A stretch of DNA of 64,000 nucleotides from an uncultured Bifidobacteriaceae bacterium (GTDB taxonomy: Bacteria; Actinomycetota; Thermoleophilia; Miltoncostaeales; Miltoncostaeaceae). Shown piece by piece: positions 23,177 through 33,445 of this stretch; the stretch's first letter is position 1; the number at the start of each line of letters is the position of its first letter. The stretch covers positions 29,589 through 93,588 of the forward strand of contig CAYMSM010000036.1 in the NCBI GenBank assembly GCA_964393105.1. The letters are read 5' to 3'. The notes below the pieces were generated by a model. That model did not search any database. It was given only the letters and a program-made list of their open reading frames with translations, and was not told where the DNA came from. The position numbers and the translations under genes were made by a program.

Positions 23177-24076
23177 GTGCGCCGATTCCGCTTCTTCTCG
23201 GCCGAGGCGATCCGGTCGATCCGGTCGAACGCCGCAATCTCGTTTGCTGCGACGGCGACCGTGCTGATCGCGATCGCCACGCTCGGCATCTTCCTGGCGG
23301 TGTTCTCGTGGAGCCAGTCGCAGATCGAGGGACAAAAAGACAAGCTCGACCTGCGCGCGTTCATCAAACTGGACGCGTCGGCTGCCGACATCGAAGCCGC
23401 GGTCACGGCCGTGCAGGGGCATCCCAACGTCGCGAGCATCGTGTACAAGAACCGCGATCAGGTGCTCGAGGAGGCCAGGAAGCAGTTCGGCGGCGACATC
23501 CTCGATCTGCTGCCCGAGAACCCGTTGCCGGCGACGATCACGATCAAGCCGGACGACCCCGAGAACCAGCAGAAGATCGTCGACGACCTCGCCTCCAAGG
23601 CGTACTGGCTCAAGGATGAGAACTCCCCCAAGGGTTTCAGCGTCAATCAGCAGACGACGCAGGACTTCCTGTCGGCCGCGAAGGTCCTGCGATGGGGCGC
23701 GTTCGGTCTGATGCTGATCCTCGTGATCGCCGCGATCCTGCTGATCGGCAACACGATCCGGCTGTCGATCTTCGCACGTCGGCGTGAGGTGGAGGTGATG
23801 CGCCTCGTCGGGGCGACGAACTGGTTCATCCGATGGCCGTTCGTGATCGAGGGTCTGATCTTCGGTCTGTTGGGTGCGATCGCAGCGGTGTTCCTGCTGA
23901 TCGTCGGCAAGCTGACGGTCGTCGACAAGCTGCTCAACTTGAACGACAGCCCGCTCCAGCAGCAGACCGACTCCACGATCGGTCTGCCGACCCTCTCCCT
24001 GATCCTGATCGTCGCCGGCGCCCTCCTCGGCGCTCTCGGCAGCGGCATCACGCTGCGCCGCTTCCTGCGCGTCTAA
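23177..24076 (+). CDS. ftsX: cell division permease FtsX
   Basis: Follows ftsE by 4 nt. FFSAEAIRSIRSNAAISFA N-terminus, large extracellular loop and a C-terminal 3-TM FtsX domain. Confidence 0.9.
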   Translation: MRRFRFFSAEAIRSIRSNAAISFAATATVLIAIATLGIFLAVFSWSQSQIEGQKDKLDLRAFIKLDASAADIEAAVTAVQGHPNVASIVYKNRDQVLEEARKQFGGDILDLLPENPLPATITIKPDDPENQQKIVDDLASKAYWLKDENSPKGFSVNQQTTQDFLSAAKVLRWGAFGLMLILVIAAILLIGNTIRLSIFARRREVEVMRLVGATNWFIRWPFVIEGLIFGLLGAIAAVFLLIVGKLTVVDKLLNLNDSPLQQQTDSTIGLPTLSLILIVAGALLGALGSGITLRRFLRV

Positions 24077-24339
24077 GTGTTCCCCTGCGGGGAACACTAG
24101 GGGCGGCCTTTCGGCCGCCTTTCATGGTTGCGCTCGTAGGGCGAGGACGTTGCCTGCGCGGGATCGGACCGTGAGGGCGACCACCAAGGGGCTCGCCAGG
24201 GTGGCCGTAGGCCGCCTTTCATGGTTGCGCTCGTACGGCGAGGACGTTGCCTGCGCGGGATCGGACCGTGAGGGCGACCACCGAGGGGCTCGCCAAGGTG
24301 GCCGTAGGCCGCCCAGAGTGTTCCCCGAAAGGGGAACAC
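24077..24339. repeat. composite repeat: hairpin, 2 x 97-bp tandem repeat, hairpin
   Basis: GTGTTCCCC-TGC-GGGGAACAC (24077-24097). Units 24113-24209 and 24210-24306 differ at 3 positions. GTGTTCCCC-GAAA-GGGGAACAC (24318-24339). Confidence 0.85.
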
Positions 24340-24366
24340 TGACCTATCATCGGCGGGTGTTCGCCG

Positions 24367-25593
24367 ATGAATGATTCGCGCCGGGGTCGAGGGTCGTCGC
24401 TTCGATGGGGGAGCGCCCTTCTGACGATTCTGCTCGTCGGCCTGGTGTTCGCAGTCGGCGTGTGGTTCGGTGGCCATCCCCGCCAGGTCGGCTTGGACCG
24501 GCTCCCGAGCGGGGTGCGCGACCGGCTCGTCGCCGAGGAACGGACGGCGCTCGCCACGCAGGTGCTGGCAATCCTCAAGGAGGACTACTACAAGCCGATC
24601 TCGCCCGATCTTGTCAAGCAGGTCGAGAACGCGTCGGTCATCTCGCTTGTCGAGAAGCTGGGCGATCCGTACACCGAGTACCTCAATCCGGATCACTACC
24701 GGCTGTTTCAGGCGAATCGCGAAGGCAAGTACGGCGGGGTGGGCGTCGAGTGGCAACCCCAGGGCGACAGCGCCCGTATCGTGCGGGTGTTCCCTGAGGG
24801 GCCCGCCGCGACAGCCGGAATCCGTATTGCCGATCGCGTCACGGCGGTCGACGGCAAGAAGGTCACGCGTGACGATGCGTTTGCGGCGATGCAGACCGTC
24901 AAGGGCGACGAGGGCTCCAAGGTCACGTTACGGATCGCTCGTGACGGGGTCGCGGATCGGGATTACGCGTTGACGCGGGAGGAGATCCGCAGGCCGGTCG
25001 TCGAGTCGCGCATCGAGACGTCGGGGGAATCCCGTATCGGCTACGTGCGCTTGGACCAGTTCACGGAGGGGTCGGCCAAGACGTTTCGCACCGCCGTTCG
25101 CAAGCTCGCTGAGCAGAAGGTCGACGGCCTCGTCTTCGACCTGCGGGGCGACGGTGGCGGGCTGGTCGAGGAGGCGGTCGGGGTCGCGAGCGTCTTCCTG
25201 CCCGACGACAGCCTTATCGCGACGACGCGTGGCCGCAGCGGACCCCGTGACAAGCTCACCGCGACGGGTGACCCCATCGACCCGAAGCTGCCGTTGGTCC
25301 TCCTCGTCGACCGCGACTCGGCGAGTGCCAGCGAGATCGTCGCGGGGGCGCTTCGCGACAGCGACCGGGCCCGCCTGGTCGGCACACGGACGTTCGGAAA
25401 GGCGCTGATCCAGTCGACGCGTACGCTGGCAAATGGCGGCGCCATCAAGTTCACGGTCGCCTCCTACCTGACACCTGATGGCTTCGACCTGGGAACGCGG
25501 GGGCTTCCGCCCGATGTCGAGGTGGTGGACAACCTCGCGACGCCGGCCGACGAGGCGTTAGCGCGCGCGCTCCGCGAGGTGGTGGCCCGCTGA
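24367..25593 (+). CDS. S41 family C-terminal processing peptidase with PDZ domain
   Basis: N-terminal TM, PDZ region (GPAATAGIRIADRVTAVDG), DLRGDGGG, DRDSASASEI and TFGKA motifs. Confidence 0.9.
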   Translation: MNDSRRGRGSSLRWGSALLTILLVGLVFAVGVWFGGHPRQVGLDRLPSGVRDRLVAEERTALATQVLAILKEDYYKPISPDLVKQVENASVISLVEKLGDPYTEYLNPDHYRLFQANREGKYGGVGVEWQPQGDSARIVRVFPEGPAATAGIRIADRVTAVDGKKVTRDDAFAAMQTVKGDEGSKVTLRIARDGVADRDYALTREEIRRPVVESRIETSGESRIGYVRLDQFTEGSAKTFRTAVRKLAEQKVDGLVFDLRGDGGGLVEEAVGVASVFLPDDSLIATTRGRSGPRDKLTATGDPIDPKLPLVLLVDRDSASASEIVAGALRDSDRARLVGTRTFGKALIQSTRTLANGGAIKFTVASYLTPDGFDLGTRGLPPDVEVVDNLATPADEALARALREVVAR

Positions 25594-31530: not shown

Positions 31531-33201
31531 TAGCCCGGATCGGGCGATAAGGATGGCGAGTTACGTTGAGCCGGTACGTGGGTCCCGCCATGACGGGTTT
31601 GGGTGTTGGTGGGCTCGCTCAGCGTGTGGTGGCGGCTGTTGGGGTGAGTCGTTACGCCGGCCACTGCGTGTGACGGCTGTTTCCGGGCAGCCGGAGGCGG
31701 CCTGGGCGACAACGTCTCGTCTTCATCGACCCCTGGGGCTGCTACGCGGCTGGGGTGGGCAGCGCCCTCAGTCGGGCGAAGGCGGCGACGAGCGCCTCGG
31801 CCCAGCAGTCGGCCGGCAGGTGCAGCCGCATCCTGCGGCCTGAGCGTGTGAGCTTGGCGGCGATGTGCAGCAGTCGGTAGCGAAGCCGTTTCGGCTCGGC
31901 GCGGGCGAGGTCGCCGGTGAGGGTGAGCGTCTGGGTCCAGCTGGTGAGGTCTTGGGCGATGAGGACCAGCTCGAGCCAGAGCGCGTTGTGGGCGCGGGCG
32001 TGGAAGGGGAGGTTCCTGAGGCCGGTGTCTTTCGCGGCGCGGATGCGGTCCTCGACGCGGGCGTGGGCGCGGTGGCAAGCCTCGAGGCAGACGACGTCCT
32101 CGCCGTCTTGGTTGGTGATGAAGGTTTGGAAGCGGTGGCCATCGGCGTCGCTGAAGGAAAGTTGCGCCCCTGGGTGGGGCCGCTCGCGGCGGCAGATCGC
32201 GCGTGTGCCGGGCGGCCAGCCGCGGAGGTCGGGGAAGATCTCGGCGACCCACGCACCTTCGCGCTCGCCGCCGTCTTGTGTCACCGCCGCTGTCCACGCC
32301 CCCTCGGGCAGGGCGAGCACCGCCCGCCGGACCGGTGCGGTCAGGTCGAAGCCGACGGAGAAGCCCATCCCCATGGCACTCACCGCGTCGAGGAACGCGT
32401 GGGTGGCCCCACCCGAGTCGGCGCGCACCAAGATGTCGTGGGCGGCGGGGTCCTCACCCACCCCGGGAAGCTGGTCGACGGCGTCGATGAGCACCGCGAT
32501 GTGATCGGCGGCGGTGTTCGCACCGGCGTTGCCGGGGCGAAGAACTCCCGAGAGCGCCTCGTCCGAGCCGTCCAGGTAGCACAGCAGCGGGTGGAAACCG
32601 AAGCCACGCTTATAGGTCGGCTCCGCGCCCTGTTTGTCGGAGTGGGAGCTCACCAGCGTCGCGTCGATGTCGAGGATGAGTCGCTTCGGCCTGGCTCCCG
32701 CCGCCCACGCCAACGCGCGCGCCCGGCCGCGGGCGGCGCGGATCGCGCGAAGGTGAGCCTCGTCGGCCGCCGTGATCGTCCGCCAGGCGGTGCGCCCCGA
32801 GGCGACCGGACCGAACAACGCGGCCTGATCGCGCAGCGCCCCGAGGTCGCTGAGGCAGTCCCCACCATCGGCGAGCATCACCGCCAAATCACGAAGCACC
32901 ACACCCGGATCATGGACCGAGCGACGCTCCCGAGTATCTGCCATCGCCTCACCCAACGCCCGAGTGAGACCGAGCCGATCAGACAACTCGACCAACAACG
33001 CGCTACCGGCATGCGACACAACACCCGTAGCGTCCGCGACGACTTGTACCTTGCTCTTGCGTGAACGACGCGTCACCTTCAAGGTGAACCTCCTGGGCGG
33101 GTAGAACGGTGGCTTCAGCACCCCCATTCTCCCCGCCCAGTCAGACGTCACGCACCCACCAACGCCCCCGCACGACTCCGCCTATCGCCCTATCCGGGCT
33201 A
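31531..33201 (-). mobile_element. IS element, IS1380-family-like, about 1.67 kb
   Basis: Terminal inverted repeats TAGCCCGGATCGGGCGATAAGG (31531-31552) and, reverse-complemented, TAGCCCGGATAGGGCGATAGG (33181-33201). Flanking TTAG/CTAG. One transposase ORF. Confidence 0.75.
31742..33151 (-). CDS. DDE transposase (IS1380-family-like)
   Basis: 469 aa. LILDIDATLVSSHSDKQGAEPTYKRGFGFHPLL and VRADSGGATHAFL motifs. The family name is from memory of similar actinobacterial transposases. Confidence 0.8.
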   Translation of the reverse strand: MTSDWAGRMGVLKPPFYPPRRFTLKVTRRSRKSKVQVVADATGVVSHAGSALLVELSDRLGLTRALGEAMADTRERRSVHDPGVVLRDLAVMLADGGDCLSDLGALRDQAALFGPVASGRTAWRTITAADEAHLRAIRAARGRARALAWAAGARPKRLILDIDATLVSSHSDKQGAEPTYKRGFGFHPLLCYLDGSDEALSGVLRPGNAGANTAADHIAVLIDAVDQLPGVGEDPAAHDILVRADSGGATHAFLDAVSAMGMGFSVGFDLTAPVRRAVLALPEGAWTAAVTQDGGEREGAWVAEIFPDLRGWPPGTRAICRRERPHPGAQLSFSDADGHRFQTFITNQDGEDVVCLEACHRAHARVEDRIRAAKDTGLRNLPFHARAHNALWLELVLIAQDLTSWTQTLTLTGDLARAEPKRLRYRLLHIAAKLTRSGRRMRLHLPADCWAEALVAAFARLRALPTPAA

Positions 33202-33445
33202 GTGGTCCCCGTCGCAAGTACGGCAACGTTTCCCGCGCGAAAACCGAGCCAGGGGAGGAGATCCAAACGCCGCCCTCACCACGGCTCTTGGGCGGCCTAT
33301 GACCCACCCTTCCGGGTGGGTCAAACGCTGATGGCGGCTGGTAAGTGTCCCGCCGCTATCGGTCCCCATAACGGTGGGACCGAGGACAATGCCTGGCGAC
33401 GGTTTGCAGCCGGGAAACGCGGTCGTACTTGCGAGGGGGACCACT
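33201..33445. repeat. 245-nt long-stem element (MITE-like or structured RNA)
   Basis: 33201-33235 pairs with 33411-33445 (31 Watson-Crick plus 1 G.U of 35). Central perfect hairpin at 33300-33323. No credible ORF. Confidence 0.6.

Follow-up and report, generated by a model that had tools for sequence, protein, structure and literature searches.

The DNA analyzed here (the window, 64,000 nucleotides on contig C36) comes from a 73-contig MAG of 2.27 Mb (G000; 68.7% GC, 91% completeness), the genome of a Miltoncostaeaceae-like member of Thermoleophilia. The genes at the locus run in the order prfB, ftsE, ftsX, S41 peptidase, RNase R, and smpB, with the tmRNA gene further on, and the spacer between ftsX and the S41 peptidase gene is filled by a 265-bp element (24076-24340). 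This element consists of hairpin A1, hairpin B0, two 97-bp units, and hairpin A2, and its parts are listed in Table 1 together with the flanking genes and a second repeat of the window that is discussed below.

Table 1. Features of the ftsX/S41-peptidase spacer, its flanking genes, and the 245-nt MITE of the window.
Feature	Position in the window	Strand	Description
ftsX	23177-24076	+	Pfam FtsX and FtsX_ECD; TAA stop at 24074-24076, its last base being the first base of the extended palindrome
Left terminal inverted repeat	24076-24121		Holds hairpins A1 and B0; 47-nt inverted match to 24295-24340, 85%
Hairpin A1	24077-24097	+	9-bp perfect stem, loop TGC; directly 3' of the ftsX stop codon
Hairpin B0	24102-24119	+	7-bp stem, loop TTTC; 3' arm is the first GGCCGCC direct repeat
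97-bp unit 1	24113-24209	+	Core 24120-24199; Tandem Repeats Finder
Hairpin B1	24200-24216	+	7-bp stem with one G.T pair, loop GTA; unit junction and the element's center of symmetry
97-bp unit 2	24210-24306	+	Core 24217-24296; Tandem Repeats Finder; alignment to unit 1 at 98%
Right terminal inverted repeat	24295-24340		Holds hairpins B2 and A2
Hairpin B2	24297-24313	+	Identical to B1
Hairpin A2	24318-24339	+	9-bp stem of A1, loop GAAA
-10-like motif CCTATCATCGG	24343-24353	+	TATCAT at 24345-24350; starts 3 nt past the element and lies 13 nt upstream of the peptidase ATG
S41 (Ctp-type) peptidase with PDZ domain	24367-25593	+	Pfam Peptidase_S41 and PDZ
245-nt MITE	33201-33445 (C36:62789-63033)		Ends AGTGGTCCCC / GGGGACCACT; center 33264-33340 is one 77-nt module

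Tandem Repeats Finder described positions 24113-24313 as an array with a period of 97, 2.1 copies, 97% matches, no indels, and a score of 381, the next best tandem array in the 64-kb window scoring 63. A 7-nt direct repeat, GGCCGCC, bounds both units and forms the 3' arm of every B hairpin, and each unit closes with the hairpin GGTGGCC-GTA-GGCCGCC. The two units differ at three positions (24139/24236, 24186/24283, and 24200/24297). From our reading of 23900-24500, four bases separate A1 from B0 and four separate the unit array from A2. The inverted symmetry of the element reaches past the hairpins to give 47-nt repeats of 85% identity that are centered on B1. Within the window, the outer hairpin's pattern has just two matches, at 24077-24097 and 24318-24339, and none was expected from 100 shuffles. 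The original prediction, made from the letters of the window, had listed these hairpins and units, and all of them were found at the coordinates it gave, both by sequence reading and with Tandem Repeats Finder. Its view that the stretch is non-coding also held, since a period of 97 cannot hold a reading frame and Pfam returned no match for the four ORFs that overlap the element.

Searches for further copies of the 97-bp unit, which the original prediction had proposed as a check, returned only chance 11-19-mers when blastn and short-word blastn were run on the whole genome. A blastn match of the unit on contig C40 was rejected, as it lies in unrelated sequence. Blastn of the element against 60 relatives produced short weak matches only (E above 1e-4), and a covariance model of the unit found nothing credible in the 14 other genomes of the genus (best E 0.6-0.8). 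No second copy of the 80-nt core was found elsewhere in the genome, in the 14 same-genus genomes, or in the species-representative or metagenome collections, and a 22-nt exact core pattern was absent from ~185,000 species-representative genomes and the metagenome collection. When the locus was sought in metagenomes with FtsX as the guide, the best match had 73% identity and no close strains were retrieved. We also ran the outer-hairpin pattern against all species-representative genomes; the 66 scattered matches, in unrelated phyla, compare with ~26 expected by chance in our own rough estimate for 18 specified bases, and the search was set aside as uninformative.

The element was likewise without a match to any Rfam family, in line with the original prediction, which had recognized no known RNA family in it, in a permissive search of the locus that admitted E values up to 10; two chance-level matches lie at the locus, both inside ftsX, and the tmRNA is the sole match in the window at gathering score. 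Consensus scans detected no promoter-like or terminator-like site and, in 23900-24500, no intrinsic terminator. The sequence behind hairpins B0 and B1, TTTCATGGTT, is below the threshold of the terminator scan (5 T in 8 bases).

The genome harbors a resident family of repeats. Iterated nhmmer searches of G000 revealed a 77-nt structured module in 61 copies that are distributed over 40 intergenic arrays (24 single, 11 double, and 5 triple), such as those at C61:37336-37556, C4:45125-45314, C16:18479-18628, and C61:103848-104143. The arrays occur in both orientations, with no clear bias between co-directional genes (14 versus 10), and several of them start 2-8 nt after a stop codon by a crude ORF call. 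Compensatory pairs are seen in two helices of the module, at 9-72 (G-C 27, C-G 10), 11-70 (C-G 17, A-T 11, G-C 6), 15-66 (A-T 21, G-C 14), 40-57, and 42-55. A 21-nt motif of the module is present 47 times in G000, 22-63 times in five same-genus genomes, and 0-6 times in the other nine, and reversed-pattern controls gave at most 1 match. In the species-representative collection, this motif was found only in MAGs labeled Actinomycetota, Thermoleophilia, or Miltoncostaeaceae. Rfam gave no match for the module family, the array on contig C60 that is described below included. By its distribution, this undescribed family is limited to a sub-clade within one Miltoncostaeaceae-like genus.

One such module forms the center of the 245-nt MITE, which lies 9 kb away from the ftsX element and whose 10-nt tips, AGTGGTCCCC and GGGGACCACT, are one base off the tips of that element. 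Blastn identified four full copies of the MITE (92-100%), the other three, at C4:73737-73981, C33:59-302, and C58:15784-16022, being 92-97% identical. Short forms of 164 nt sit at many contig ends, and the middle 82 nt of the MITE recurs alone at many sites, often in tandem. As a multi-copy MITE, the 245-nt element upstream of the tmRNA is not a 6S/Ms1-like RNA. Two genes with the Y1_Tnp domain (PF01797) were also noted, one outside the window at C36:98131-98460 and one at C9:28268-28597, with open frames of 282 and 259 codons from stop to stop. These genes look RAYT-like or IS200-like. As mobilizers of the modules they were rejected, because there are no 77-nt modules in their flanks. The copy on C36 is followed by its own short repeats of the TTGCCCGG type.

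We then compared the ftsX element with this family. At genome scale, the family profile did not detect the 97-bp unit, and the locus is absent among the 61 nhmmer matches. The best local score of the profile at the locus was 5.9 bits, for B0 against the module center; none of 300 shuffles reached this score, to which we give little weight as B0 is a GC-rich palindrome. A collinear alignment of the unit with the module was attempted by eye and abandoned, as the short motifs that they share stand in a different order. The terminal hairpin proved more informative. The pattern AGTNNTCCCC-N3/4-GGGGANNACT has three matches in the 15 genomes of the genus, all of them in G000, and the controls have none. 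Two of the matches are A1 and A2, the pair that the original prediction had recognized; the third is a related copy at C60:21804-21826, and the other 14 genomes of the genus hold none. The C60 hairpin directly abuts the TAA stop codon of dnaN; behind it come, in this order, the short GC-rich motif known from the ftsX locus, three canonical modules, and the start of recF. Over the string "TAA + hairpin + TA", which includes the stop codon and the loop, the ftsX and dnaN-recF loci are identical at 23 of 26 positions, and this alignment scores 37 when the maximum in 3000 random genome windows is 26. The piece of C60 that bears the hairpin was aligned by nhmmer as a diverged module in which the variable hairpin is the A hairpin.

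From these alignments, the element shares with the module family both its terminal hairpin part and its position after a stop codon. The evidence that points to this family link comes from one paralogous locus and one sister species. The element is not an isolated one: its terminal hairpin and the motif next to it are part of a prolific, lineage-specific system of modular repeats; the 80-nt core is locus-specific and could be foreign or new.

The dnaN-recF spacer (C60:21480-21828; L265/L266) contains 3+1 modules in G000, one module in the closest species G005 (C167; L267), and none in more distant species, where it is short. Since G005 has one module at the dnaN-recF locus and one at the ftsX locus, both loci were probably colonized in the lineage of G000 and G005 and later expanded in G000. 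The GTG at which recF starts in G002, as read here, is GTC in G000 and G005, and the next in-frame GTG of these two genomes falls within the last module. On this comparison of gene starts, RecF may owe a new start and ~10 N-terminal residues to the repeat.

The order of ftsX and the S41 peptidase gene is kept across the family, and the spacer between them measures 290 nt in G000. In six same-genus species (G002, G007, G009, G012, G013, and G014), the spacer is ~47-63 nt long and is without any such element. In G005, the closest species, whose FtsX is 93% identical, a spacer of ~108 nt holds one canonical 77-nt module in antisense orientation, which starts at the ftsX stop codon and scores 28 bits (E 5e-6 at genome scale). 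The spacers of G001 (L046) and G003 (L043) are 380-465 nt long and hold other, unrelated palindromic repeats. The repeat of these two genomes is ~190 nt long, is in tandem in G001, and starts with GATGGGTGATCCCACG and ends with CGTGGAATCACCCATC. When the spacers are compared in this way, small repeats seem to have landed at this site repeatedly.

A motif, CTATCATCGG, was found 4-16 nt before the start of the peptidase gene in all genus members examined and in one genome of another genus (loci L036-L041, L047, L050, and L176). CTATCATCGG, with the -10-like TATCAT, is probably the peptidase gene's own promoter element and would give a leaderless or short-leader message. In several species, CTATCATCGG is enclosed as the loop of an inverted repeat, with arms that vary from one species to another. 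The element stands in for ~27-30 native spacer bases between the stop codon and the motif, and no target-site duplication was seen at its borders, which have TAA on one side and TGA on the other. In the 3' arm of hairpin A2, GAACAC (24334-24339) could alternatively pair with GTGTTC (24357-24362) downstream of the conserved motif. Such pairing makes alternative structures at the peptidase start possible.

The 265-nt element has a predicted folding energy of -176.2 kcal/mol on the plus strand and -140.4 kcal/mol on the minus strand, and the 301-nt stretch 24070-24370 has z-scores of -10.5 (plus) and -6.9 (minus). For the core, the energies are -37.2 kcal/mol (plus) and -22.0 kcal/mol (minus); the sense core folds better than the antisense core because several of the stem pairs are G.U. 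Situated downstream of the ftsX stop and ahead of the peptidase gene's -10-like motif, the element would form the 3' end of the ftsEX transcript. REP/BIME and BOX repeats are tolerated in such a position, where they reportedly shield the RNA before them or reduce read-through (PMC3049150; PMC3184786), and by analogy with these repeats the very stable sense-strand fold of the element could act as an exonuclease barrier or a partial terminator. Given this fold and this position, we favor a structure at the 3' end of the ftsEX message that is neutral or of mild use, and the element need not have a selected function.

Regarding its origin, we consider it reasonably probable that the element is a non-coding composite repeat which arose from the lineage-specific structured intergenic family and was reshaped and duplicated in place. 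We hypothesize that the common ancestor of G000 and its closest species already had a module behind ftsX, and that this module gained the 80-nt orphan core together with its own terminal part in inverted copy, which would have made it a palindromic composite. The segment made up of the core plus B would then have been doubled by replication slippage or by unequal exchange between the hairpin-forming GGCCGCC repeats. The original prediction had called the duplication recent on the strength of the near identity of the units; with three substitutions in 97 nt (3% divergence), the doubling appears recent on the scale of species divergence. Its other suggestion, that the ends are like the ends of small mobile or recombinogenic elements, agrees with the 47-nt inverted ends of 85% identity.

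The alternative that the original prediction had offered alongside, a duplicated structured RNA, can be stated as a selected molecule of one of two kinds: a two-copy small RNA derived from the 3'-UTR, each copy ending with the B hairpin plus UUUCAUGGUU, or a cis-regulator of read-through from ftsEX into the peptidase gene. The greater stability of the sense core and the plus-strand z-score would suit such an RNA, as would the placement of all three unit differences in loops or helix ends of the predicted fold and the GAACAC/GTGTTC pairing around the conserved motif, which permits alternative structures near the start codon. A dedicated regulatory RNA is nevertheless unlikely, since no sister species examined has the element in this spacer, and a conserved RNA gene is for this reason not supported. 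The element is also located upstream of the -10-like motif that probably serves the peptidase gene. The fruitless covariance search of the 14 genus genomes, the lack of an Rfam match, and the lack of a promoter-like or terminator-like site in the scans weigh in the same direction, and the two near-identical copies leave no room for a covariation signal. "Small mobile or recombinogenic element" is thus closer to the mark than "duplicated structured RNA". It might then be asked whether the element is an independent MITE of recent horizontal arrival, unrelated to the resident family, whose ends resemble the family's by convergence on GC-rich hairpins. We regard this as quite unlikely. Its 47-nt inverted ends, small size, and lack of coding capacity are those of a MITE, its core is without a relative in the genome, and the other palindromic repeats in the same spacer (L043, L046) suggest an insertion hot spot; against this, it occupies a single locus with no target duplication, its core pattern is absent from the species-representative and metagenome collections, the 23/26 match to the dnaN-recF array is well above chance, and a family module lies at the same site in sister species G005.

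Very improbable indeed is an assembly artefact, in which a short-read assembler would have expanded or collapsed the repeat. Such an error has to be considered for a MAG of 73 contigs that often break off at repeats, and the contigs available for the comparison are short-read contigs only. The Logan contigs, however, are an independent assembly, and in run X1, a freshwater sediment run that is probably the source run, a 98-nt Logan contig (24169-24266) bridges unit 1 and unit 2 with no mismatch at a depth of 15.5. The flanks in this run have depths of 15.4 (left) and 12.3 (right), and a 59-nt piece common to both units (24140-24198) has a depth of 29.5. The junction thus has the depth of one copy and the shared core that of two, as expected for exactly two units. 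A 127-nt contig (24178-24304) from run X4, which belongs to a different study, also crosses the unit junction, and the three differences between the units do not fit a simple graph loop. The depths of the independent assembly argue against an artefact, one of the refutations that the original prediction had named, and the two units are upheld as far as contigs can tell. A bolder reading, distinctly improbable in our judgment, concerns the resident family. The 77-nt modules and the A-hairpin variant would be a new class of structured elements that docks directly onto stop codons in conserved operons (dnaN-recF, ftsX-ctpA) and serves as operon punctuation at the RNA level, setting 3' ends, insulating cistrons, and sometimes donating start codons, with the ftsX element as a two-unit form that evolved locally under selection for its sense-strand fold. 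The explanation that we prefer is the plainer one: the ftsX element looks like a local, recently duplicated offshoot of the family, an ordinary selfish or neutral intergenic repeat and not a new RNA gene.

Several known systems resemble the element in part. BOX elements are boxA-(boxB)n-boxC composites with a variable tandem middle (PMC3049150). Like BOX of S. pneumoniae, the repeats studied here are composite, non-coding, and intergenic, with terminal modules that pair, a variable tandem middle, a tight fold when transcribed, and a presence in many gene spacers (PMC3049150). They differ from BOX in having no sequence relation to it and in residing in a high-GC actinobacterial host; in addition, boxB is common to all copies of BOX, whereas the 97-bp unit is confined to one locus and the shared 77-nt module is not the part that was duplicated. 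With 69% GC and this host, membership in BOX is implausible, and the comparison holds by architecture alone.

The REP/BIME elements of enterobacteria can dampen transcription or stabilize the RNA that precedes them (PMC3049150; PMC3184786). What the element shares with REP/BIME is GC-rich hairpins that cluster as mosaics immediately 3' of stop codons and within operons; Y1 transposase-like genes, too, are present in G000. REP systems, however, comprise hundreds of palindromes and a RAYT gene that is flanked by them, whereas G000 has three A hairpins and a handful of B hairpins, its Y1 genes are unflanked, and the units are far longer than REPs; the element is accordingly not assigned to this class. 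With MITEs, it shares long terminal inverted repeats (47 nt), a length under 300 bp (265 bp), the lack of coding capacity, and a high degree of base pairing. It differs from them in that multiple dispersed copies and a target-site duplication were not found for the ftsX element, which replaces ~30 nt of native spacer. Mycobacteria have tandem repeats of the MIRU type. These, too, are tandem units of 40-100 bp in operon spacers of actinobacteria with a copy number that varies between relatives, and the dnaN-recF module that seemingly supplies the recF start recalls the MIRU ORFs which overlap flanking genes. The 97-bp unit differs from MIRU in not being a multiple of 3, in having no ORF coupled to its neighbors, and in lacking any sequence relation, and no variation of its copy number within the species was seen. 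By analogy, the closest architectural counterpart is pneumococcal BOX, the position and likely effect are REP/BIME-like, and the ends are MITE-like; the element is best filed as a new, locally derived example of small modular intergenic repeats.

Taken alone, the element matters little, being one more small palindromic repeat in a gene spacer. Its copy number, like that at dnaN-recF, differs between sister species and could be used to type strains of this uncultured freshwater-sediment lineage. What it exposes is an undescribed repeat system in Miltoncostaeaceae-like Thermoleophilia that carries compensatory changes, breaks short-read assemblies, is found right next to stop codons within essential operons, and may change where genes start. 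The repeat family is the more useful result, and it should be masked first when non-coding RNAs are annotated in these MAGs.
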